From Gemmatimonadota bacterium (lineage in GTDB: Bacteria; Gemmatimonadota; Gemmatimonadetes; Gemmatimonadales; GWC2-71-9), in NCBI GenBank assembly GCA_003222235.1, contig QHVD01000026.1, forward strand, positions 1 through 34,577: a stretch of DNA of 34,577 bases, read 5' to 3'. This document shows positions 2,794 to 34,577 of this stretch, piece by piece. The translations under genes and the position numbers were made by a program. Below the pieces are notes generated by a model, which had not been told where the DNA came from, did no database searches, and saw only the letters and a list, made by a program, of their open reading frames with translations. Each line of letters begins with the position of its first letter. Position 1 is the stretch's first letter.

Positions 2794-3473
2794 AGCGTAC
2801 GGTCGCGGCGACAGCGGCCGTGACGTTAGCTTCCGGCGTGCTCTCCACGTTTCTCTTCGACCTCGACGGCACACTCATCGACTCGATCGAGCTGATCCTG
2901 CGATCGTACCGGCACACCATGCGCGCCCATCGCGGGCTCGAGCCGCCGGACGAGGTGTGGATGCAGGGCCTCGGGACGCCGCTCTGGGTGCAGTTCCACC
3001 ACTGGACCGAGGATCCCGCCGAGATCGAGGCCATGGTGGCCACGTACCGCGCCTACAACCTCGAGCACCACGACGAGCTGGTGCGGCCGTACGAGGGCGT
3101 CGTTGCCGCGGTGCGGGATCTCCGGAAGAACGGAAAGACGCTGGGGCTCGTGACGAGCAAGATACGGGAGGGCGCCCTTCGCGGGCTCCAGGTCGCCGGG
3201 CTCGAAGACGGCTTCGAGGTGATCGTCGGCGCCGACGACGTTACGCACCCCAAGCCGCACCCGGAGCCGGTATTGAAGGCGCTCGAGCGGCTGGGCGCGC
3301 CCGCCGCCGACACCGTGTTCATCGGTGATTCGCGCCACGACATCGAGTGCGGCCGAGCCGCAGGGGTGAAAACGGCCGCCGTGTTGTGGGGGCCGTTCGA
3401 TCGTACTTACCTCGCGGACCTCGTGCCCGACTATTGGCTGGAGCGACCGGAAGACCTCGCCACGTTGGCGTAG
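2790..3473 (+). CDS. HAD-superfamily hydrolase (phosphoglycolate phosphatase / PpaX-like, subfamily IA)
   Basis: Motifs FLFDLDGTLIDS (motif I DxDGT), LVTSK (motif II) and FIGDSRHDIECGRAAG (motif IV). GTG at 2790 overlaps the SNF2 stop as GTGA. The 430-aa track ORF from 2181 is an out-of-frame overlap of the SNF2 gene. Confidence 0.85.
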   Translation: MKRTVAATAAVTLASGVLSTFLFDLDGTLIDSIELILRSYRHTMRAHRGLEPPDEVWMQGLGTPLWVQFHHWTEDPAEIEAMVATYRAYNLEHHDELVRPYEGVVAAVRDLRKNGKTLGLVTSKIREGALRGLQVAGLEDGFEVIVGADDVTHPKPHPEPVLKALERLGAPAADTVFIGDSRHDIECGRAAGVKTAAVLWGPFDRTYLADLVPDYWLERPEDLATLA

Positions 3474-13533: not shown

Positions 13534-14832
13534 ATGGCGCGAAATCACCTGACGAGCTCCTCCGCCGTCTGCTGCTGGATACCGCTATTCGCGCTGCGCT
13601 GCGAAGCGGCGCGGCGACCCGAGCTCGGGTCCCGGCCCAGCGCGCTCGTCGCACCCGACGATACCCGCAGGGTGTGGCAGGTCTCGCCGCTCGCCCGGCA
13701 TGCGGGCGTGAAGCCCGGGATGACCGTCAGCCAGGCGATCGGTCTATGCCACACGCTCCTGCTGTGCGAAGCCGACCCGGTCTATTACGACGAGCAGTTC
13801 GCTCGACTGCTCTCCGCCCTGGGAGCGGTGAGTCCCGTCATCGAGGCGCCCGAGCTGGGCAGGGTGTTCGTGGGGACGGACGGGTTGGAAGGGTTGTATG
13901 GGGGGCCGGAACGGATCGCGGATGCGATCAAGTGCGGAGTGCGGAGTGCGGAGTGCGGAATTTCAATGCAAGCTCGTTCGCCACGACACTCACCTGAAAA
14001 CTCCGCATTCCGCACTCCGCATTCCGCACTCCGGGTGGGGTGGGGCATGGGCAAGTTCGTCTCCTGGGTGGCCGCGACCCGCGCCAAGCCAGGTGGCGCG
14101 GTCATCGTTCGCCCCGGGGAGGAGGGGAAGTTCCTCGCGGCGCAGCCGCTGGCCGTGTTGCCGCTCGATCCGGACACGCACCGCCGGCTGCGGCTGCTCG
14201 GGCTCCGCACGATTGGGGACCTCGCGGCGCTTCCGGAGGAAGCGGTGGTCTCGCAGCTCGGTCGCGCCGGGCGCCGCCTGTGGCGGCTCGCGGCGGGCGA
14301 GACCGCGGAGCGGGTCGTCGGCCGCGAGGCGCCTGAGCCGATCACCGCCGCCATCGCCTATTTCTCTCCGGTTGCCGAGCGGGAACTGCTCGCGCACGCG
14401 CTGGAGCAGCTGATCGAGCGCGCGCTCAGGCACCCGCGCCGCGCCGGCTGGCGGGTACAGGTGCTGCGTGCGCGCGCCGAGCTCGAGCACGGCGCGTCGT
14501 GGCTCGCCGAGGCGACGCTCAAGGACCCGTCGGCGGACCGGGATCGCATCGCCGCGCCGCTCAAGACGCGCCTCGAGCAGGCGCCCCCCACCGGGGCCGT
14601 GGAGCGGCTCGCCGTCGAGTTCACCGGGTTCGCGCCGGGCACCACCGAGCTGCAGCTCTTCGCGCGCGACGCGCGCGCCGCCGCCCGGGCCGGCCGACGC
14701 CGCGCGCTCCGCACCGCCGTCCACGAGATCAAGCTCCGGCTCAAGCGCCCGATGCTGTACCACGTCATCGCCGTCCAGCCATGGTCGCGCATCCCCGAAC
14801 GCCGCTACGCGCTGATCGACTATGAACCCTAG
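13534..14832 (+). CDS. imuB: ImuB, Y-family-polymerase-like component of the ImuB/DnaE2 mutasome; catalytic-fold part only, truncated by a repeat-borne TAG
   Basis: The N-terminus reads AVCCWIPLFALRCEAARRPEL...VSPLARHAGVKPGMTVSQA...DPVYYDEQF...SPVIEAPELGRVFVGTDGLEGLYGG. The gene sits directly upstream of dnaE2. It contains an in-frame ~35-codon repeat insert (CGVRSAECGISMQ...[12 protein letters not shown]). Confidence 0.85.
   Translation: MARNHLTSSSAVCCWIPLFALRCEAARRPELGSRPSALVAPDDTRRVWQVSPLARHAGVKPGMTVSQAIGLCHTLLLCEADPVYYDEQFARLLSALGAVSPVIEAPELGRVFVGTDGLEGLYGGPERIADAIKCGVRSAECGISMQARSPRHSPENSAFRTPHSALRVGWGMGKFVSWVAATRAKPGGAVIVRPGEEGKFLAAQPLAVLPLDPDTHRRLRLLGLRTIGDLAALPEEAVVSQLGRAGRRLWRLAAGETAERVVGREAPEPITAAIAYFSPVAERELLAHALEQLIERALRHPRRAGWRVQVLRARAELEHGASWLAEATLKDPSADRDRIAAPLKTRLEQAPPTGAVERLAVEFTGFAPGTTELQLFARDARAAARAGRRRALRTAVHEIKLRLKRPMLYHVIAVQPWSRIPERRYALIDYEP
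13931..14033. repeat. Hairpin-type heptamer element inside imuB: (AGTGCGG)x4 - 41-nt spacer - inverted 31-mer
   Basis: The left arm is 13931-13958 (+aat). The right arm, 14000-14030 (actccgcattccgcactccgcattccgcact), is identical to 21683-21713. The arms pair with G:T (G:U) wobbles. The element is read through in frame. Confidence 0.9.
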
Positions 14833-14861
14833 TGCGGAATGCGGAGTGCGGAATGCGGAAT
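14831..14861. repeat. 31-nt heptamer element AGTGCGGAATGCGGAGTGCGGAATGCGGAAT (left copy of a perfect inverted pair)
   Basis: The reverse complement of 15164-15194 is identical, 31 of 31. The preceding T plus the element's first AG form the imuB stop TAG (14830-14832). Confidence 0.95.
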
Positions 14862-15125
14862 AGGCCTGACAGGCTTCGGGCGCTAAATGTGCCGCAACGG
14901 GTGGAGGTGGAGCTGGACGAACGCGGGGTGCCGGCGTTCGTGAAACCGAAGACGGGAAACGGGAAACGGATCGAGTCCATCGGCGAGACCTGGCGCATCG
15001 ACGACGAGTGGTGGCGACGACCGATCTCGCGTCGCCATGTCGAGGCGATCCTGGAGAGGGGTAAGCGGGTGGTGCTGTTCGAGGATCTGATGACGGCCGA
15101 GTGGTGGATGCAGATGCCGACATAA
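14832..15125 (+). CDS. Stand-alone ImuB C-terminal domain (split from imuB)
   Basis: LNVPQRVEVELDERGVPAFVKP...IGETWRIDDEWWRRPISRRHVEAILERGKRVVLFEDLMTAEWWMQ matches my recollection of the ImuB C-terminal block (ERIxxEWW...RDY...LFRD...WFLHG). GTG 14832 overlaps the imuB TAG as TAGTG. Alternative starts are ATG 14853 and GTG 14889. Confidence 0.6.
   Translation: MRNAECGMRNRPDRLRALNVPQRVEVELDERGVPAFVKPKTGNGKRIESIGETWRIDDEWWRRPISRRHVEAILERGKRVVLFEDLMTAEWWMQMPT
14952..14970. repeat. AACGGGA-family heptamer array (about 2.5 units) inside the ImuB C-terminal ORF
   Basis: gacgggaaacgggaaacgga encodes KTGNGKR. The same family occurs at 17674-17708. Confidence 0.7.
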
Positions 15126-15126
15126 C

Positions 15127-15194
15127 GCGGCATTCGGAATGCGGCAGCGAAGCCCGACCTTCGATTCCGCATTCCGCACTCCGCATTCCGCACT
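15127..15194. repeat. Hairpin-type heptamer element between the ImuB-C ORF stop and the dnaE2 ATG (degenerate left arm, palindromic spacer, perfect 31-mer right arm)
   Basis: The element reads gcggcattcggaatgcggcag - cgaagcccgaccttcg - attccgcattccgcactccgcattccgcact. It ends one base before ATG 15195. Confidence 0.9.
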
Positions 15195-18100
15195 ATGTAT
15201 ATCGAACTTCACTGCCACTCCGCCTTCTCGTTCCTCGACGGCGCCTCACTCCCCGAGCAGCTCGCGCTCACGGCCGCGCAGCTCGGCTACCCGGCGTTGG
15301 CGCTCACCGATCACAACGGCCTGTACGGCTCGATGGCGTTCGCACAGGAGGCGAAGCACCTCGGCCTGCAGGCGATCACCGGCTCGGAAGTGACGCTGCT
15401 CGACGGCTCGCACGTGACGCTGCTCGCCGAAACGCCCGAGGGGTACGCGAACCTGTGCCGGCTGATCACCGAAGCACATCTGGGCCGTGTCGACCGCCGC
15501 GACCCGCGACTCGACTTCGCTTCGCTCGAGCGGCGGCACGAGGGGCTCGTCGTACTCTCCGGCTGCCGCGCCGGACTGCTCGCAACCGTGCTCGAGAAGG
15601 AAGGCCGCGCCGCCGCCCGGAGGCTGCTTGAGCGCTGCCGTGCCGAGTTCGGGAAGGAGAGCTTCTTCGTCGAGCTCCAGCGCAACCTGGTCCGCGGCGA
15701 TCGCGACCTTACGCGCGCACTCTGCGATCTCGCGGATCGCGTACAACTTGGCGTCGTAGCGACGGGGAACGTGCACTATCACACGCGCGAGCGGCATCGG
15801 CTGCACGACGTGCTCGTCGCGATCCGGCACCGCGCGACGCTCGACGGCTCGCACGACGTGCGGCGACCGAACAGCGAGTTCTCCCTGCGGCCGCCCCAGG
15901 AGGTCGCGGCGCTCTTCTCCGATCGGCCCGACGCGGTCGCGAACACCGGCGTGATCGCCGAGCGCTGCGGGACGTTCGACCTGACGCGCGACCTCGGCTA
16001 CGTCTTTCCCGACTTCCGTGGCGCAGGCCGGACGTCCGCCCCGCAGGCCCTGGCCGAGCTGTGCCGCACGAGGCTAGAGGAGCGCTATCCCCCGGGTTCC
16101 GCCCACCGGGACGAGGCCGAGCGGCGCCTCGAGCAAGAGCTGGCGCTCATCGAGCGCCATCGACTCAGCGGGTTCTTCCTGGTCTATCACGACCTCTTCG
16201 ACCTGGCCCGCGAAGTGGCGGCGGATGTGCGCCGGGGTACCCGGCGGGCCCACGGGAACCTGCTCCCCGGCCGCGGCCGCGGCTCGTCGGTGTCGTCCAT
16301 CGTATGCTACCTGCTCGGCCTGTCGCACATCGACCCGGTCGCGAACCGGCTGTTCATCGGGCGATTTCTCAACGAGACCCTCGCGTCGGTGCCCGACATC
16401 GATCTCGACTTCCCGCGCGAGATCCGCGAGGAGCTGATCCGCCGGGTCTACAGGCGCTACGGCGACGAGCACGTCGGGCTCGTCTGCTCGTTCCCCACCT
16501 ACCGGCTCCGCTCGGCGGTGCGAGAGATCGGCAAGGCGCTGGATCTGCCGCTGGGAGAGATCGAGCAGACGGCGAAACTGGCGGACCGGCGGTCGGGCGG
16601 GGGCGGACTGGCGGACGAGTTGGACCAGCTCCCGGGCTTCGAGGGACGGCGCACGGCCCCGCTCTGGAAAGAGCTTTGCGAGCTGGCCGAGGAGATCACG
16701 GGGCTGCCCCGCCACGTGTCGCAGCACGTCGGCGGGATGATCATCTCGAGCCGGCCTCTCGTCGAGCTCGTGCCGCTCGAGCGCGCGGCGATGGAGGACC
16801 GCGTCGTGTGCCAGTGGGACAAGGACTCCTGCGACGACGCGCGCTTCATCAAGATCGATTTTCTCGCGCTCGGCATGTTGTCGCTGGTGGAGGAGTGCGT
16901 CGAGCTGGTCGCCGCGGGCACGGGGACGCCGCCCGACCTCTCCCGCATTGATTTCGATGACCCCGCGGTCTACGACCGCATCTGCCGCGGCGACACCGTG
17001 GGGCTGTTCCAGATCGAGAGCCGCGCGCAGATCCAGATGATCCGCCGCACCCGGCCGAAGAACCTCGAAGACTTGGCCGTCGAGGTGGCGATCGTGCGGC
17101 CGGGGCCGATCGTGGGCGGCGCCGTGAACCCGTACGTGCGCCGCCGTGAGGCGCAGCGCCGCGCCGAAGCCGAGGGGCGCCGCTACGAGCCGCCGGTGGA
17201 CCACCCGCTCCTGAAGCCCGTGCTGGCGGAGACGCTGGGCGTGATTCTCTATCAGGACCAGGTGTTGCAGGTGTGCCAGGCGCTGGCCGGGTTCACGACC
17301 GGGCAGGCCGAGGCGCTGCGCCGCGCGATGAGCCGCCGGCGCAGCCGCGAGCTGATGGCGGGGTTCTGGGAGGAGTTCAAGGACGGGGCGGCGGCGCGCG
17401 GGGTCCCCGAGTCCGTCGCGCAGCGCGTGTTCACGCAGGTGATCGCGTTCTCCGAGTTCGGATTCCCCAAGTCCCATGCGGCGGCGTTTGGGCTGCTCGC
17501 CTACCAGTCGGCGTGGCTCCGGCACTATCACCCAGTCGAGTATTACTGCGCGCTCTTCAACAACCAGCCGATGGGGTTCTACTCGCTCGACGTGCTCGGG
17601 CGGGACGCGCAGCGCAACGGCATCGAGATCCGGCTCCCGGACGTGAACCGGAGCGACGTGTGGTGCACCATAGAACGGGAAACGGGAAACGGGAAACGGG
17701 AAACGGGGGCGGTGCGGGTGGGGCTCGGGTTCGTCCGTGACTGGAGCGAGGAGACGGCGACCGCCGTCGTGACCGAGCGCGAGCGCAACGGCCCGTTCCG
17801 GAGCGTCGGCGAGCTCGTGCGCCGCGCGCCTCCCAAGCTCAAGCGCAGCGCGATCGAGAACGTCGTGTGGGTGGGCGGGTGCGACGGCTTCGGTCTCACA
17901 CGGCGCGAGCTGTTGTGGCAGATAGGGCTGTGGCTCCCGCCCCGGGAGGAGCGCGGCGGTGACGCACGCGGCCGGCGCCAGCTCGAGCTCGCGCTCAACC
18001 ACCCGCACGAGCACTTGCGCTTCGGCGGCCTGGAGCCGGGCGAGCGGATGCTCGCCGAATACGCGGTGTTGGGGTTCGCGGTGAGCGGCCACCCGCTCGA

Positions 18101-18527
18101 GCTGCTACGCCAGGCGCTGCCGCGCGGGATGGCGAAGAGCGACGCGCTCCCGCGGCTCGAACACGGGACATGGGTCGAGGTGGCGGGCCTCGTGGTCGCG
18201 CGCCAGCGTCCCGAAACGGCGAAGGGGTTCATCTTCGTGCTGCTGGAGGACGAGGCGGGGATGGTGAACGTCATCGTACGGCCGGACGTATTCCAGCAGC
18301 ACCGCGCCGCGATCCGCGGCGAGCCGTTCCTGTGGGTGCGGGGGAAGCTCGCGAAGGACGACGGGACGGTGAACGTGGTGGCGGAGGAGGTGCGGGGACT
18401 CAGACTGAATGCGGAATGCGGAGTGCGGAATGCGGAATCGACGGGCGAGCCCACCATTCCCCATTCACCGTACGCCTTCCTGAAGACGATGCGCCGGGTG
18501 GCGCCGGAATCGAAGGATTGGGGCTAG
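15195..18527 (+). CDS. dnaE2: Error-prone DNA polymerase III alpha-like subunit DnaE2 (ImuC)
   Basis: The PHP domain reads YIELHCHSAFSFLDGASLPEQL...LALTDHNGLYG. Pol III alpha core blocks include GRGSSVSSIVCYLLGLSHIDP, DIDLDF, FQIESRAQ and RPGPIVGG. The protein is 1110 aa and lies downstream of imuB. Confidence 0.95.
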   Translation: MYIELHCHSAFSFLDGASLPEQLALTAAQLGYPALALTDHNGLYGSMAFAQEAKHLGLQAITGSEVTLLDGSHVTLLAETPEGYANLCRLITEAHLGRVDRRDPRLDFASLERRHEGLVVLSGCRAGLLATVLEKEGRAAARRLLERCRAEFGKESFFVELQRNLVRGDRDLTRALCDLADRVQLGVVATGNVHYHTRERHRLHDVLVAIRHRATLDGSHDVRRPNSEFSLRPPQEVAALFSDRPDAVANTGVIAERCGTFDLTRDLGYVFPDFRGAGRTSAPQALAELCRTRLEERYPPGSAHRDEAERRLEQELALIERHRLSGFFLVYHDLFDLAREVAADVRRGTRRAHGNLLPGRGRGSSVSSIVCYLLGLSHIDPVANRLFIGRFLNETLASVPDIDLDFPREIREELIRRVYRRYGDEHVGLVCSFPTYRLRSAVREIGKALDLPLGEIEQTAKLADRRSGGGGLADELDQLPGFEGRRTAPLWKELCELAEEITGLPRHVSQHVGGMIISSRPLVELVPLERAAMEDRVVCQWDKDSCDDARFIKIDFLALGMLSLVEECVELVAAGTGTPPDLSRIDFDDPAVYDRICRGDTVGLFQIESRAQIQMIRRTRPKNLEDLAVEVAIVRPGPIVGGAVNPYVRRREAQRRAEAEGRRYEPPVDHPLLKPVLAETLGVILYQDQVLQVCQALAGFTTGQAEALRRAMSRRRSRELMAGFWEEFKDGAAARGVPESVAQRVFTQVIAFSEFGFPKSHAAAFGLLAYQSAWLRHYHPVEYYCALFNNQPMGFYSLDVLGRDAQRNGIEIRLPDVNRSDVWCTIERETGNGKRETGAVRVGLGFVRDWSEETATAVVTERERNGPFRSVGELVRRAPPKLKRSAIENVVWVGGCDGFGLTRRELLWQIGLWLPPREERGGDARGRRQLELALNHPHEHLRFGGLEPGERMLAEYAVLGFAVSGHPLELLRQALPRGMAKSDALPRLEHGTWVEVAGLVVARQRPETAKGFIFVLLEDEAGMVNVIVRPDVFQQHRAAIRGEPFLWVRGKLAKDDGTVNVVAEEVRGLRLNAECGVRNAESTGEPTIPHSPYAFLKTMRRVAPESKDWG
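17674..17708. repeat. Tandem heptamer array (AACGGGA)x5 inside dnaE2, read in frame
   Basis: gaacgggaaacgggaaacgggaaacgggaaacgggg encodes ERETGNGKRETG. Confidence 0.9.
18408..18470. repeat. 31-mer heptamer element (30/31 to 14831-14861) plus a degenerate inverted arm, in frame near the dnaE2 3' end
   Basis: aatgcggaatgcggagtgcggaatgcggaat (18408-18438) is followed by cgacgggcgagcccacc and then attccccattcaccg. It encodes [21 protein letters not shown]. Confidence 0.85.
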
Positions 18528-18560
18528 CTTTCCAGATAGACTTATAGAGGGAGGTTCTGG

Positions 18561-19109
18561 ATGCCGCAGCACGAAGTTGCGACGCTCGCCGGCGGGTGCT
18601 TCTGGTGCCTCGAGGCCGCGTTCGCGCAGCTAAAGGGCGTAGAGCGGGTCGAGTCGGGCTACTCGGGCGGTCACGTGCCGAGCCCGAGCTACGAGGACGT
18701 GTGCACGGGATCGACCGGGCACGCCGAGGTCGTGCAGATCACGTTCGACCCCCAGGTATTGCCGTTCCGCGACCTGCTCCACGTCTTCTTCACGATCCAC
18801 GACCCGACCACGCCCGACCGCCAGGGAGGGGACGTCGGCACGCAATACCGCTCAGCGATCTTCTATCACACGCCGGAGCAGAAAGCCGAGGCCGGGCAGG
18901 TCATCGCGGAGCTCGAAGCCGAGAAAGTCTGGGACGATCCGATCGTGACCCAAGTGACGCCGCTCGAGAAGTTCTATCCGGCGGAGGAGTACCACCGCGA
19001 TTACTACCGCCGCAACCCGAACCAGGGCTACTGCCGCGCGGTGATCGCGCCGAAGGTCGCGAAGGTCCGCAAGCTCTACCTCGACAAGCTCAAACAGCCG
19101 GTGGCTTGA
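18561..19109 (+). CDS. msrA: Peptide-methionine (S)-S-oxide reductase MsrA
   Basis: Motifs GGCFWCLEAAF, GYSGG and HAEVVQITFDP. A GGGAGG RBS precedes the ATG. Confidence 0.95.
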   Translation: MPQHEVATLAGGCFWCLEAAFAQLKGVERVESGYSGGHVPSPSYEDVCTGSTGHAEVVQITFDPQVLPFRDLLHVFFTIHDPTTPDRQGGDVGTQYRSAIFYHTPEQKAEAGQVIAELEAEKVWDDPIVTQVTPLEKFYPAEEYHRDYYRRNPNQGYCRAVIAPKVAKVRKLYLDKLKQPVA

Positions 19110-19119
19110 GCGAGCGGTA

Positions 19120-20034
19120 TCACGGTTGGGGGCTTGCTGGCACGGCGATCGCCCCCGTCGGCCATTCACCGTCGAGGAAGCGCCGCATTGCCGCCAGGAC
19201 CGGCTCGGGTTGCTCAACGTAGAGCGCATGTCCCGCGCCGGGGAACATCATCAACCGCGCATTGGGCATTCGCTCGGCCCACACCCGCGCCCCTTCCGGC
19301 GGCGCGATGAGATCCCGATCGCCGTGCATCACGAGGGCCTCGGCCGTGATCGAGCCGGCCTGGTCCCGGAAGTCCCACTCGCCCAGCGACCGATCCACGT
19401 GACCATACCACGCAAATAGCTGCTCCGGTCGCTCGTTCGGCAGATCGCAGAAGTCCACCGGGAAACGATCGGCGAGCGCCGGGTCACCCACGTACACCGG
19501 TGCGTTCGCCCTCCAAAACCGGCGGCAAAAGCCCTCCGGGTCGCGCTTGCTCGCACCCGACTGGAGCAGGCGGGCGACCTCCTGCGCGGCCGGCGTCCTG
19601 ACTCGGAGCGCCTTCTCGGGGGGGTTGTAGGAGCGGCCGAGAGCCGCGGAAGGCGCCATAGCGCCGAGCGCAACCAGTCGACTGACACGGTCTGGGTGCT
19701 CCGCCGCGTACACCGCCGCGATCGCGCCGACGTAGGAAAAGCCCACGAGCGCCATGCGCTCGAGTCCGAAGTGGCGTCGCACCGCCTCGACGTCGGTGAG
19801 GTCGTGCGTGATGCCGATCCGCGCGGGGTCGCGCACCGCGTCCGAGCGGCCGCGACCGCGCAGATCGTAGAAAATCAGGCGCTGGCCGTCGGCGAGCGGC
19901 CCGAGCGGGCCCGCGAGGTAGACGGCAAGGGGAACGACGACCGCCTGGGAACCGCTGCCGCAGAGCTGGTAATGGAGGCGCAGGCCCTCTTCGGCCGGTA
20001 GCCAGCCCTCCGAGCGGGCGGCCCCACGCATCAT
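19120..20034 (-). CDS. Alpha/beta-fold hydrolase (proline-iminopeptidase-like)
   Basis: The oxyanion region reads [10 protein letters not shown]. The nucleophile elbow reads [34 protein letters not shown] and GAGH lie near the C-terminus. The ATG overlaps the lhr stop as ATGA. Confidence 0.8.
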
Positions 20035-23000
20035 TCGCGCAGTGAGGCCGGCCGGGGGCGGGGGCGGGGGCGGGTCTTTCCGAGATAGGTCCGCACCAGG
20101 GGCGCCACCCGGCGCTGGACCAACGCGGTCCTGATCTGTTGCTCTGCTTCTGGGCTAGCCTCGACCAGTAACTGCACGCCGCGCCCTTCGCCTTCCTGGA
20201 TCGCGATCGGGATGCCGTCGCGATAGAGCACGTGGTTCGTCGCGACCGCGGGCAGCGGGTTCCCGGCCGTGAGAATGCCGACGAGATTGAGCGGATCCGC
20301 CCCGCTCACCGCGACGAGCTCGCCGCTCGGGTCCTGGCGTCGCACGGAGCGGAGCAGTCCCACCGCCTCTGCAAGCGCGTACTGCTCGCCCGAGAACCCC
20401 GCGACGAAGCGGCCGCCGCGGATCTCGCCGCGCGCCTCGAGCCGGCGGTAGGCCCGCAGGACGTCCCGCCACGGCGGCAGCGGGGATTCACGCGTCACGA
20501 GCCGCCGGAAGACTACGCCGTAGCGTCGGAGCAGCTGCCGGGCGACGGCTTCCGCGACCTGGTCTTCCGGCAAGAGCGTCGACCGCGGCACGCGCGACCA
20601 CCGGCCGGCGGTCTCGACCCCGAACGGCGCGACCTTGCCGTGGCGGCGGAACCCGCCGATCGGCCGGCGCCGGTCGGATGGGACCAGCAGCGCCCGCAGC
20701 CCCGCGAAGCTGTCCGAGGTGACGAGCCCCCAGGCCACGAGCTCGCCGAGGCCCTTCTCGACCTCGGTCCGCAACAGTCCCGTCGCGCTCACGAGATCGC
20801 CGAAGAACGATGCGCCGCGCCGATCGAGCGCGTCGAGTAGCGCCCGCGCCGCGTGCGACAGAGGCAGCTCCCCGGACTCGGGGCTCACCGCGAGCGATCG
20901 CCACACGTCTCCTCGCTCCCGTCGAAACAGCGCGACGGGCGTCGAGCGGACGGGTCCAGCCTTGCGACCCCCCCCACCCCCCCCGCCCCCCCCACCGTTC
21001 AGGATGGTGCGCGGCGCCACTGCGGCGAGCCTCCCCCAGGCGATCTCCCCCGACAGGCAGAGCCCGTCGAGCCACAGGGGATCGTACTCCCGCAACCGCG
21101 CCGGCAGCACGTCCGTCTCCCACGCGCCAGCGGCAACCTCGCACCCGTCGAGCAGGTCGAGCACCGCCGCGAGCCCCTCGGGTCCCTCGGCGCGGGATTC
21201 GTCTGCAACCCGCTGCCACTGGAAGAGGAAGCGGGTGAAGTCGGCGGCGGTGACCGGCTCGATCTCCTTGCGCAGCCGGTCCAGGGTGTAGCGATGAATG
21301 CGGGCGAGGAGGCGGCGCTCGCACCACTCCAGCTCGCTCGTGCCGGGGGTGAACCGGCCGCGCAGCACGAACCCTTCGTGCTCGAGCGCGCCGAGGGCGA
21401 AGTCCACGTCGGCTACCGGCACGCCGAGCGCCGTCGCGACCGCCGCCGCCGTCGTCGGCCCGACAACCTCGAGCCGGCCCCGCACGAGCTCCCGCAGGGC
21501 GTCCTCGCGCGTCCAGCTCCTCGCCCGCTCGCGCTCGGGCGGCGTGAGCGCCGGCTCGCAGCGCGCGCCCGGGAACACCGCCGCGAGCATCGGCAGGCGC
21601 TCGGCCGCAAGCCACAGTCCTGCGCCCGCCTGAAGCACGCCGGCCCGCCCGGCCTGGACGAGCTGCCCGAAATACCCCTGCCACTCCGCATTCCGCACTC
21701 CGCATTCCGCACTCGGGAGGGCACCGGTGACCAGCAACGCATCGTGCAGCTCGTCCGCGGAGCTGACGTCGGGCCAAGCTTCGTCCTTCACCCGGTCGAT
21801 CGCCGCCTGGTCGAGCTTGCCGAGCTCGTCCGCCGTCTTCACGTCGAGCCCGCGGCGGGTGATCACGGCCTGGGTGCGGCGCTCCTCCAGCGGGGCGTCG
21901 TCCAGGAACGCGTACGGCTTCGCGTTCAGCGCCTCGTGCGACAGGGGCGACGGCTCCGCCGTGTCGCGCGCGACGAGCGCGAAGCGCCCCGCCTCCATCT
22001 CCTCGAGCACGCGCTTGAGTCCCGGGAAGTCCATCGCCTCGAGCAGGCAGTCCTCGATCGTCTGCTTCACGAGCGGATGGTCGGGGATCTCCCGGTCGCC
22101 CACCAGGTTCTCGGGGCAGGCGAGCTGATCGGGAAAGATCGCCGCGACCAGGTCTTCGGCCTCCATCCGCTGCAGCGGGGTGGGCACCTTCTTCCCACCG
22201 CGCTGGCGCAGCACGGCAAGTGCCCGGGTGGCGTTCCAGCGCCAGCGTGACTGGAACATCGGCGCGTCGAGCATCGCCTGGACGAGCAGCCCCTCGACCG
22301 TCGCGGGCTTCAAGTACTGGAATACGTCCTCGAGCGGGAAGCTGTGCTGAGGCCCGAGCGAGAGGACGATCGCATCCTCGGTCGCCGCGGCCTGCAGCTC
22401 GAAATTGAAGCTGCGGCAGAAGCGCTTCCGCAGGGCGAGCCCCCAGGCCCGGTTGACCCGGCTCCCGAACGGCGCGTGCAGCACGAGCTGCATCCCGCCT
22501 GCCTCGTCGAAGAACCGCTCGACCACGATCGTCTGCTGCGTCGGGATCACGCCGAGGATCTGCTTCGAGGCAGCGAGATACTCGACCATCTGGCGCGCGG
22601 CGGGCTCCGGGAGCCCCGGGATCTCGCGACCCACCCACGCCACGGCCGACTGGGGATCCGCGAGCCGATCGGAGATGTCCTGGCGCAGCCGCGACACGGC
22701 CTCCGACAGCTCCGCCGTGCGCGCCGGCGCCTCGCCGACCCAGAACGGGATGGACGGCGGCTGCCCCTGCGCGTCCACGACCCGCACCTGGCCCGACTCG
22801 ATCTTGCGAATGAGATAGGAGGTGTTGCCGAGCTGGAAGACGTCGCCCGGCATGCTCTCGATCGCGAAGTCCTCGTTGAGCGTGCCGACGAACGTGTCGG
22901 TGGGCTCGAGCACCACCCGGTAGTCGCCGATGTCGGGGATGGCCCCTCCCGACGTTATCGCCGCGAGTCGGGCGCCGCGACGGGCCCGCAGCCGGCCGTT

Positions 23001-26867: not shown

Positions 26868-27542
26868 TCAGGGCATCGCCTCGCACGAGACGGAATCCGA
26901 GCCAAGCGCGATCGCCTCGAACGACGCGACGAGCGACGACCGCCCGGTGGTCCCGACCTCGACCCCGGTGCCGTGCGCCGTGATCCTCAGCCGGCCGGCC
27001 CTGCGGCCGACCGAGACCGTACCGCTGTCCACCCAGAGGCCGTGCGCGACGTCGCCCAGCATGAAGCGCACGGCCACCACGGCCCCGCGCGCGGCTATGG
27101 TGTCGCCCCGCTCGAGCAAGGAGAAATCCCCCGCTGCCAGTGAATCGCCCGAGCGCAACCAGACGAGCACGCCGTTGCCGCCCTGGGTTCCTCGGATCAG
27201 CACTCCTCTCCCGACCCCGCCCCCCCCCGCCGCACGACGGCATCGGCCTGCGCTGGCGGGCGCATCGAAGCGGACCGTGTCTCGGGGCGGGTGGGTGACC
27301 TGCGCGCGCAGCCGCGCGGCGGGCTGCAGCGAGTTGCCGCAAGCAGTGCCCGCGACGGCGAGCGCGCACAGCGCGAGGCCGCGACCGCTCAGGGGGAGGG
27401 GGAGGGGGAGGGGGAATCCGCGCCGAGCAACGCGCGCGCCGCTGCTGGCGGCAGGGTGTGGGGAGCGAGCGCGTCGATCAGGTCGGCGGGCAGGGGTCGA
27501 GACTTGAGGTGCTTGCGATCCACGCACACGAGCACCATCCAC
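26868..27542 (-). CDS. Secreted protein or possible lipoprotein of unknown function; start uncertain
   Basis: The signal-like segment is SGRGLALCALAVAGTACGNS. The only ATG/GTG starts (27542, 27527) give a ~45-aa pre-signal extension that overlaps the thioesterase gene. CTG at 27392 would give MSGRGLAL... and a CTGA overlap with the thioesterase stop. Confidence 0.5.
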   Translation of the reverse strand: MDGARVRGSQAPQVSTPARRPDRRARSPHPAASSGARVARRGFPLPLPLPLSGRGLALCALAVAGTACGNSLQPAARLRAQVTHPPRDTVRFDAPASAGRCRRAAGGGGVGRGVLIRGTQGGNGVLVWLRSGDSLAAGDFSLLERGDTIAARGAVVAVRFMLGDVAHGLWVDSGTVSVGRRAGRLRITAHGTGVEVGTTGRSSLVASFEAIALGSDSVSCEAMP

Positions 27543-27868
27543 CCCGCGGCCACGAGCCCGGACCCGGGCGCCCGCAGCACGTCGAAGTTCAGGGTCATCG
27601 ACTTCGTGCCGACCCGGCCAACGTATGCGGCGACCGTCAACCGGTCGTCCAGCCGCGCGGGCGCGTAGAACTCGCTATGGACCGCTTTCCGGGGCAGGAA
27701 GATGTCGTAGCGATCGAAGACCCGCGTGTAGGCGAGGCCGCACGAGCGGAACAGCTCGGTCTCGGCGATCTCGAAGAACCGCACGTACGACCCGTAAAAA
27801 ATGATGCCCGCGAAGTCTACGTCGGACCACCGGACGTACTCTTCGATGATATACGGCGTGGCGGGCAT
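27389..27868 (-). CDS. Acyl-CoA thioesterase, 4HBT (YbgC-like) hotdog fold
   Basis: The protein reads MPATPYIIEEYVRWSDVDFAGIIFYGSYVRFFEIAETELFRSCG...KSMTLNFDV. The tail SPSPSPSP* is encoded by the (GGGGGA)x4 array. Confidence 0.8.
   Translation of the reverse strand: MPATPYIIEEYVRWSDVDFAGIIFYGSYVRFFEIAETELFRSCGLAYTRVFDRYDIFLPRKAVHSEFYAPARLDDRLTVAAYVGRVGTKSMTLNFDVLRAPGSGLVAAGWMVLVCVDRKHLKSRPLPADLIDALAPHTLPPAAARALLGADSPSPSPSP
27392..27415. repeat. (GGGGGA)x4 hexamer array
   Basis: The sequence reads gggggagggggagggggaggggga. On the minus strand it is read as SPSPSPSP (thioesterase frame) and PLPLPLPL (downstream ORF frame). Confidence 0.9.
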
Positions 27869-27944
27869 CGCGTCCCGACCGGTGGAGCCCGAGCGGGAAG
27901 CTAGGGTAGGTAAAACGCCGACGCCAGGATCGGCGGGTCGGCGG

Positions 27945-28438
27945 TCAGGCGCGCGCGGCGGAGCTAGCGCCTCCGTGCCCGTTGTGGCGCAGGCCGTAGG
28001 CGCGCAACCGGCGCCACAGCGTCGTGCGACTGATGCCGAGGCGCCGCGCGGTCTCGGCGAGCGCCGCGCCGTCTCGGCGAGCCTCCCGCCGGTAACCTCA
28101 AGAGTGTCGACGATCGCCTGCCGCTCTCGCTCGGCCAACGTCTTCGCGTGGTCCCCGTCTGCCAGGAAGATGGCCTCACCCAGGTCGGTGGGGCCGTGCT
28201 TCAGCGCGCGGACCCGGCCGCCGAGCGCCACCAGGCGCTCCCGGAGCGCCGGGCCGCGCACGAAGGCAGGGTCGCCGAGACTGTCGATCAGCCTGCGGGC
28301 GCGGTGGTTCGCGTACAGCATCCGGCCATGGGTGTCGAACACTACGACTCCTTCGCTGAACGACTCCATCACGGCTTGGCCGATGGGGGCGAAGGTGGGC
28401 GGTGACGGGAGCATTGGGCCCTTCTCTCGCGTTGCCAT
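27945..28438 (-). pseudogene. Small PAS-like + Fis-type HTH (HTH_8) regulator, disrupted by a 20-bp tandem duplication
   Basis: The N-terminus reads MATREKG...AVMESFSEGVVVFDTHGRMLYANHRARRLI...ERERQAIVDTLEVTGGRLAETARR and then goes out of frame. Removing one 20-nt unit restores ...AETARRLGISRTTLWRRLRAYGLRHNGHGGASSAARA* with its stop at 27945-27947. As sequenced, the frame runs into the thioesterase ORF and forms the 366-aa track ORF. Confidence 0.7.
28041..28080. repeat. Tandem 20-bp duplication (19/20 identical)
   Basis: The units are gcgccgcgcggtctcggcga and gcgccgcgccgtctcggcga. Confidence 0.95.
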
Positions 28439-28642
28439 ACGTGATTGGATACTCGGAATGGGGGTCAGAGTTTCAGGCAGCGCCGCCATAAGGAGGACCC
28501 TCAGAGTGGTGCGACGTCACAACTCGGGTGCGCCCTGAACGACCACTCTCCCCCTCCCTAAGTTAAGCCCGGCTCGCGTAGTGTGAGCGCCACAGGGGTG
28601 CGCGCCAGGGCGAGCGCCGTCTCCCAGGGCGCCGCGTCAGGG

Positions 28643-31231: not shown

Positions 31232-31305
31232 GGCTGAATACAAGGTAACCGGTGCGGCAAGCGCAAACGGCCGCGGCGGCCGCGCCGCGGCGGCCGGTGC
31301 GCCCG

Positions 31306-32989: not shown

Positions 32990-34548
32990 CGGCCGGGAGC
33001 GCCGTCGCCGGCCTCGTATATGAGCGGCTGGGCGGCGCCACGGGCACGCAGGCGCTGGCCACCGTGAACCTCGGCGCGCTGGCCGCCCTGCTCGTGCTGC
33101 TGCCGGTCGCGGTGAATGCCTCGCTGTACCTCGAGCTCGCGCTCGGCCGCCCGCTCGCGTCGCTGGACTCCGGGCTCACGGCACGCTGGGAGGCGATCGT
33201 GTACGCGTGCTCCGCAGCGCTGGCACTCGGGTGGCTGCGCCTGACCCACGCCGGTCTCGAGAGCGCGGACGCGCTCACCTTGGCCGCCGTGCTCGCGGTT
33301 GCGACCGTCACGAGCGCCTACGTGATCCGCAGAGCCGTACGCGCCGACGAGCTGGAGCTGCTCCAGGGGCTATCGCAAGCAATTGCCGGGGACTTGAGCC
33401 TCGCCAGGAGCTTCGCGCGCATCCAGAATCTCACTCGGCGGCTGGTCCCCTGGGAGCAGATGTGCTTTGCCCGCTACGACCCGCGCACCAATCAGATGGA
33501 GCTCGTCGCCGACACCGCGGCGGGAGCGAGGGGCGGAGCAGCGGGAGCGGCCGTCGAAACCGGGCGCCCGCAGCTCCGGTTCGATGCGACCGCCGGGGCG
33601 ACGGTCGAGGCGGTGCGGCTGCGGCGTCCGGTGGTCGCCGCGCCCGAGGCCGGCCTGGGAGGGGGGATCGTCCCCGGCCGAGAGACACCAGGTTCCGAAG
33701 TTCTCGTGCCCCTGTATCACGCCGGCGAGCTCGTCGGCCTGTGGAGCGTGCGCCATTCCCGACCCCGGATCTACCAGGACAGGGACGCGGCGCTCTTGGC
33801 CCTGCTCGCGCCGCAGCTCGCGCTCCTGCTCGCGATCGAAGCCTCCGTGCAGCCGGTGGCGGGGGCCTCGGAGCGGACCGGCGCTTTCGTCCAGACGCTG
33901 CGCGCCACGGCGCGGCACATCCACGCCTCGAGCCAGGGGGTGACGGCGGCAGCGCAGCGCTCCAGCCACGGTGCCCGGCAGGCGGCAAGCATCCTGACCT
34001 CGCTCGGGCGTGATTCTGAGCAGCTGCAGCGCCACGCCGGGGCGGTCGCCGAGGCCGGGGACCAGACCCGGCAATCGGGCGCGCAGATGGACAAGACCAC
34101 CGACAGGGTCCGGCTCGCCACGCAGGCCGCCGTCCGCCGCCTCACCGACCTGGGCGCGACGACCGAGGAAAGCGCAAATGAAGTCCGCCGGCTGCGGGAC
34201 GTCGCCGAGCAGGTGGAGAAGTTCTCGGAGACGATCGGCCTCGTCGCGAACCAGACCAACCTGCTGGCCCTCAACGCCACGATCGAGGCAGCCCGCGCCG
34301 GTGTGCACGGGCGCGGCTTCGGGGTGGTCGCCGACGAAGTCCACAAGCTGGCGGAGGCGAGCGGGCGCGAGGCGCGCAACGTCGGCAAATCCGCTCAGGA
34401 CACGCGCAAGGCCCTAGACCGAGCGGCGCAACTCCTCGAGCGGATCCGCACGGAACTGAGCGCAGTCGCGCAGGGCTCGGCGGACTGGGTCGGGGACCTG
34501 GACCACATCCCCGAGGCCGCCTCGCAGACCGCACGCGCCGGAAAGTAG
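32986..34548 (+). CDS. Membrane-anchored GAF-domain protein with a methyl-accepting chemotaxis (MCP) signalling domain
   Basis: TM segments come first, followed by a GAF-like region ([20 protein letters not shown]...[17 protein letters not shown]). The MCP hairpin core reads [43 protein letters not shown]. The part of track ORF 32764 upstream of 32986 is not protein-like. Confidence 0.8.
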
Positions 34549-34577
34549 GTCGTACACATGGCGGGAGAGGTCATGGA

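Follow-up and report, generated by a model that had tools for sequence, protein, structure and literature searches.

The window (the whole stretch of DNA that was analysed, 34,577 nt) contains, within the gene for a small regulator, two near-identical 20-nt units lying side by side, and the question is whether this arrangement exists in a living bacterium or was made during assembly. A sequence-only reading had described it as a 20-bp tandem duplication that disrupts the Fis-type HTH of the regulator and fuses its frame to the adjacent thioesterase gene, and had offered three accounts of it: that it switches the regulator on and off by mutation, that it is a recent inactivation, or that assembly created it. 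The window makes up the start of C280, a 54.7-kb scaffold of a metagenome-assembled genome (MAG) of 3.84 Mb in 603 scaffolds (68.6% GC, estimated completeness ~86%), which contains 204 N-gaps amounting to 14 kb of N, the gap lengths being variable estimates. The genes run in the order DEAH-type helicase, small regulator, thioesterase, a further ORF and ispH, as they do in a genome of the same genus, G001. The apparent duplication is very probably the product of a chimeric misjoin in this fragmented soil MAG, and not a real biological feature.

The duplicated units and the reading frames

On its minus strand the window reads ...GGGAGGC TCGCCGAGACGGCGCGGCGC TCGCCGAGACCGCGCGGCGC CTCGGCATC..., where the first two blocks are units 1 and 2. 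Re-computation confirmed that the units adjoin, are 19/20 identical and have ACG versus ACC as their sole difference. Chance would not be expected to produce such a pair of 20-mers; in 1 Mb of sequence simulated with a first-order Markov model of matched composition, tandem repeats with units of 16-60 nt and at most one mismatch were found 0 times. The effects on the reading frame that had been read from the sequence were also borne out. Removal of either unit gives an identical 174-aa ORF, ending at a TGA at 27947-27945, in which HTH_8 (PF02954) is complete (profile positions 1-42 of 42, 56.2 bits). As sequenced, HTH_8 is truncated (positions 1-27 of 42, 19.7 bits, under the 22-bit cutoff), and the regulator frame remains open into the thioesterase coding sequence to give an ORF of 366 aa at 27389-28489. 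Exact look-up of public protein records returned none for the 366-aa product nor for the two repaired versions.

The N-terminal part of the regulator gives a weak match to PAS_8, followed by the first 27 positions of the HTH_8 profile; among NCBIfam models the regulator aligns best with DhaR, over the C-terminal 50 residues that form its DNA-binding module. The true 175-aa protein resembles HTH_8 regulators such as DhaR, NtrC and Fis in having a full HTH_8, here with a weak PAS-type N-terminus; it differs in having neither an AAA+ sigma-54 interaction domain nor a receiver domain. It is a minimal two-module protein that is conserved within one Gemmatimonadota family. When the one-unit protein was searched against 40 related genomes, an orthologue of ~150-185 aa, with the HTH and without an internal stop, was found in 22 of 24 same-family genomes sampled; in two more the orthologue carries a single in-frame stop, and in one incomplete genome no more than a weak match was obtained. 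Since intact one-unit orthologues are present in these relatives, the one-unit state is ancestral and the regulator is conserved. A paralogue of the regulator is present in the MAG at C431:5685-6059 (47% identity, a 170-aa open frame); G001 has a matching paralogue, so that genomes of this genus carry no fewer than two members of the family.

The neighbouring gene encodes a thioesterase of the YbgC/FadM group, with a 4HBT hot-dog domain, that matches TIGR02799 at 71 bits, below the equivalog cutoff, so that it is assigned at family level only; TIGR00051 also matches. It is a separate ORF of ~161 aa in G001, the MAG AG22 and the two metagenome contigs described below. The 366-aa "fusion" owes its existence solely to the chance that no stop interrupts the shifted regulator frame. 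The same shifted upstream frame is also open in AG22 itself (229 aa from stop to stop), and because of this the open frame joining regulator to thioesterase is a by-product of GC-rich sequence. A comparison of the longest ORF as sequenced and after collapse, made for all duplications in the MAG, showed that long open frames are common at 69% GC. A GC3-phase test, which used noisy 240-nt windows, gave a "weak" result at the focal site and a clear one at only 4 other sites.

Lineage of the sequence on either side of the junction

The 38 nt upstream of the units were used as the query in a scan of metagenome contigs, and two contigs from two different metagenomes were recovered: Ga0209378_1008746 (L020) and Ga0209056_10006303 (L021). 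In both the unit is single and carries ACG, the regulator is intact (175 aa, C-terminus ...RRLREYGLRPHGQKGHVQAARAS), and the thioesterase downstream is a gene of its own. G001 is likewise single-unit; its regulator ORF is 175 aa long, with 93% amino-acid identity across residues 1-174, its thioesterase (161 aa) is again encoded separately, and in all three the HTH motif is read through intact. These sequences show the form of the locus in the real population: a 175-aa protein with a PAS-like part and a Fis-type HTH, a C-rich spacer, and a separate YbgC-like thioesterase. The comparison with sister genomes, which had been proposed as a check, thus shows the lesion to be derived, as had been assumed; homologues that naturally lack the HTH and carry the fused architecture, which would have spoken against this, are not what G001, L020 and L021 contain.

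The differences between the window and the two contigs (165 from L020 and 340 from L021 over the whole comparison of 6-12 kb) are unevenly placed. Between 28062 and 28999 there are 0 differences, and above 28062 there are 0-2 per 250 nt from both contigs over kilobases; below 27775 the count is 0-18 per 250 nt, for the most part short indels within C-rich repeats. The 250-bp bins over 27776-28061 contain 125-137 differences. At its upper edge this divergent block stops precisely where units 1 and 2 meet, and unit 1 is the single unit of L020 and L021 save for its final base, 28061. Neither contig has the divergent block or a second unit, and the flanks of both match the window.

A 41-nt string from the divergent block matched a single public genome, the MAG "Gemmatimonadetes bacterium AG22", on contig QHUS01000045.1. 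AG22 has a single unit, with ACC, and unit 2 of the window is identical to it. The extent of the AG22-like patch was defined by a five-way alignment together with an exact-match scan, which gave exact matches to AG22 contig C67 at 27747-27817 and 27819-28062; BLAST high-identity HSPs between AG22 and the MAG had missed the patch, which is buried in a longer HSP of low identity. The patch covers the C-terminus of the HTH, the stop codon, a 76-nt spacer and approximately the first 30-40 codons of the thioesterase, and the window and AG22 are identical in the non-coding spacer (27869-27944) too. AG22-specific bases end at 27776, and the first bases to differ from AG22 are 27746/27745. Outside the patch AG22 and the MAG have ~77% identity over 183 kb of aligned synteny, where no other exact match to AG22 exceeds 61 nt, the length of the longest. 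Inter-species chimerism is not widespread across the 183 kb compared, because this patch is the only one found there. The coordinates of these and the other features discussed are collected in Table 1.

Table 1. Positions of features at the junction and elsewhere in the window and scaffold C280
Feature	Position	Strand	Remarks
Thioesterase gene, YbgC/4HBT-type acyl-CoA thioesterase	27389..27868	-	own ATG 27868-27866; 4HBT_2 46.7 bits
Foreign patch, 316 nt	27747..28062		matches AG22 MAG save one base (27818)
Lower crossover zone, seamless	27747..27775		29 nt identical in both lineages, inside conserved thioesterase N-terminus
Unit 2, TCGCCGAGACCGCGCGGCGC, ACC allele	28041..28060	-	first bases of AG22-like patch
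Unit 1, TCGCCGAGACGGCGCGGCGC, ACG allele	28061..28080	-	last bases of own-lineage sequence
PAS-like/HTH_8 regulator, own-lineage part	28062..28489	-	start codon through first part of HTH, ...LAETARR
14-nt tandem duplication, unit GCCGCGGCGGCCGC, perfect	31270..31296		TRF row; just upstream of helicase gene
Divergent contig end	34510..34577		~14 mismatches to L021 in last ~70 nt before Ns, after kilobases of identity
N-gap, 28 N	C280 34578-34605		window end is gap start

The alternative that AG22 is the chimera was considered and rejected; the patch is continuous with AG22's own intact genes, and L020, L021 and G001 agree with one another against the window within the patch.

These comparisons show that units 1 and 2 are not copies of each other; they are the same homologous 20 nt from two different organisms, set one after the other. 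Because unit 2 opens the 316-nt AG22-like block, the single difference between them, ACG/ACC, is an allele difference between two species and not a synonymous mutation that followed a duplication. Likewise, the "repaired" 174-aa protein is itself a two-species chimera, with ~135 N-terminal residues from the MAG's own lineage and ~39 C-terminal residues of the AG22 type; its C-terminus, ...RRLRAYGLRHNGHGGASSAARA, is AG22 sequence.

Between the stop codon of the regulator and the start of the thioesterase, the own-lineage spacer is rich in C, hypervariable, and different in L020, L021 and G001. Either it is a real homopolymer or phase-variable tract, or it is a stretch that none of the assemblies resolves; it is the kind of place where short-read assembly of the dominant strain can break and the path of a relative can be picked up. 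In L020 a run of ~40 C at 2965-3010 is the counterpart of the window spacer.

Origin of the junction

Duplication by replication slippage within one genome, as a reversible on/off switch or a recent inactivation followed by one synonymous substitution, was the account that the arrangement of the units first suggested. The units are adjacent and 19/20 identical with a 2-nt GC microhomology, and taking one away restores both the reading frame and the HTH; as in contingency loci that vary by slipped-strand mispairing, two near-identical units stand next to each other and their length, not being a multiple of 3, shifts the frame. Slippage copies local sequence, however, and here ~300 nt from unit 2 onwards, spacer included, are those of a species only 77% related, whereas unit 1 and the sequence upstream of it are identical to own-lineage contigs. 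The two flanks of 28041-28080 do not belong to the same lineage, as they would after slippage, and ACG and ACC match the alleles of the two lineages exactly. Further, the unit is a complex 20-mer in two copies, from two different organisms, unlike the simple-sequence tracts of contingency loci. An origin by slippage is therefore scarcely credible. The idea of a tandem microduplication that slippage could excise does not survive the finding that unit 2 is the start of a 316-nt AG22-like block, and the on/off switch is contradicted by the change of lineage at the unit boundary.

A second possibility is a genuine recombination lesion, in which a fragment of ~300 nt from an AG22-like donor was imported with one imprecise junction and the regulator was truly inactivated; the homology anchor would lie in the conserved N-terminus of the thioesterase, and the other end would have been joined by homology-facilitated illegitimate recombination (HFIR). 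HFIR has been described during natural transformation in Acinetobacter and Streptococcus pneumoniae, and its junctions normally fall at arbitrary, non-homologous positions with 3-10 nt of microhomology. The patch resembles such an event in that foreign sequence is anchored by homology on one side and joined imprecisely on the other: at the lower junction the crossover is seamless and falls within 29 identical nt, which form part of ~100 nt at ~94% identity. That the patch is unique in 183 kb, and that it has one SNP (27818) relative to the AG22 reference, as would be the case for a natural donor strain, are also consistent with an import.

Against this, the patch and the second unit are absent from two independent assemblies of the same population whose flanks are identical, and the 366-aa product is not on record elsewhere. 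The imprecise junction lies within 20 nt of the homologous position, which would be a coincidence for illegitimate joining, whereas contigs that end near the same place would naturally give a 20-nt offset; the microhomology at the join is just ~1-2 nt. Equivalent frame-breaking duplications in rpoB and folK of the same assembly cannot be real, and the regulator is conserved across the family. A genuine recombination lesion is therefore improbable. The corresponding claim about the organism, that a living subpopulation imported ~300 nt from a 77%-identical species and in doing so lost the PAS/HTH regulator and made a translational PAS-thioesterase fusion, is equally one to which little credence can be given. 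If true, the import would be a natural snapshot of HFIR between soil Gemmatimonadota genera.

The chimeric misjoin accounts for the junction as follows. One constituent contig carried the MAG's own regulator gene, ending ...GAGACGGCGCGGCG (28062). The next piece starts CTCGCCGAGACCGCG..., ~20 nt "earlier" in homologous coordinates and with AG22-like sequence, its source being a co-occurring AG22-like Gemmatimonadetes species, and returns to the MAG's own sequence within the 29 nt common to both species (27747-27775). The pieces are joined end to end with their 20-21-nt, 19/20-identical overlap left unmerged; because the overlap was not merged the homologous 20 nt appear twice and the HTH frame is shifted, and at 69% GC the shifted frame is by chance open into the thioesterase gene. 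We infer that the join at 28062 was made by software, for which a zero-gap join by a scaffolder and a patch from local re-assembly are candidate steps.

Known cases of chimeric contigs and misassembly in MAGs have much in common with this. There is a sudden change of nearest relative at the junction, the crossover lies where co-occurring relatives share a short conserved stretch, the feature is missing from independent assemblies, and the scaffolds are fragmented and gapped, with further frame-breaking lesions in essential genes. The upper junction of the window is unlike them in being an end-to-end join with a 20-nt overlap unmerged, and not a shared k-mer path.

A plain de Bruijn path is ruled out for the upper junction, because the exact stretches that the lineages share there are just 12 and 8 nt long and none reaches 21 nt. 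A simple model in which the scaffolder abuts overlapping contigs predicts duplicated sequence across N-gaps, and the 204 N-gaps showed no excess of it over the control. According to the AG22 paper (PMC6784897), assembly was by IDBA-UD, followed by scaffolding and an automated correction of scaffold errors; a tie between that project and the MAG of the window is only a lead.

Artefact was the third of the options first put forward and is the best supported. The closest relative switches abruptly at the junction, in non-coding as well as coding sequence; the independent assemblies L020 and L021 of the same population have the single unit and no lesion; and like lesions occur in the same assembly where they are biologically impossible, in rpoB, folK and glpD. 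The biological content of the locus is correspondingly slight: the real population has an intact regulator and neither a switch nor a fusion enzyme.

Other short duplications and repeats in the assembly

Perfect tandem duplications that shift the frame are present in rpoB (C363:5087-5137, 23 nt), folK (C546:8378-8420, 20 nt) and glpD (C84:3486-3519, 16 nt). All three are single-copy in G001 and, where matched, in G004 and AG22, and flank identity is uniform. After collapse, the translations are continuous across the junctions with the curated NCBIfam models for rpoB, folK and glycerol-3-phosphate dehydrogenase. No living population could have a frameshifted rpoB as its majority genotype, and the three lesions are evidence that the MAG produces short duplications as artefacts, systematically. 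Being perfect and having same-lineage flanks, they may have arisen by a slightly different route from the 19/20 inter-lineage join.

The MAG as a whole has 46 near-perfect duplications whose units measure 16-60 nt. Strict two-copy duplications make up 40 of these (15 of the 46 are perfect), and 25 of the 40 have unit lengths that are not multiples of 3. None with units of 16-60 nt was found in 227 kb of AG22 (C67), a comparison of low power since ~2.7 would be expected at the MAG's rate. Further candidates are at C51:2276 (22 nt), C498:10630 (23 nt), C527:8272 (23 nt), C78:4904 (25 nt) and C167:1030 (17 nt).

The 366-aa "PAS-thioesterase" and the split rpoB, folK and glpD are not to be read as pseudogenes, fusions or phase-variable loci. 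More generally, where a tandem duplication in a scaffolded MAG is not a multiple of 3 in length, a change of nearest relative across the junction should be looked for before a mutational story is told.

Elsewhere on C280 the ends of constituent contigs carry variant sequence. The last ~70 nt of the window, beside the N-gap, are another unreliable contig end; an AG22 origin was tested for 34400-34577 and no match was found. The 14-nt duplication upstream of the helicase gene is in one copy in L021, whose flanks are identical to those of the window, and it is probably either an artefact of the same class as the 20-nt one or a strain indel. Outside the window, at C280 38070, an OmpA-like ORF (...RRVELH|...) lacks, at its end, 24 nt that L021 has; the missing sequence, CAAGCTACCGTAGACGGCGGACTG, includes the stop codon that L021 has.

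Tandem repeats of other kinds are also present. Arrays of 7-nt units (AGTGCGG/ATTCCGC, AACGGGA and GAATGCG) appear in the TRF output for window positions 13931-21714. Copy number varies among the window, L020, L021 and G001 both in a (GGGGGA)n repeat encoding SPSPSP at the 3' end of the thioesterase gene (27391-27415) and in a poly-C stretch near 27215 (27200-27260).
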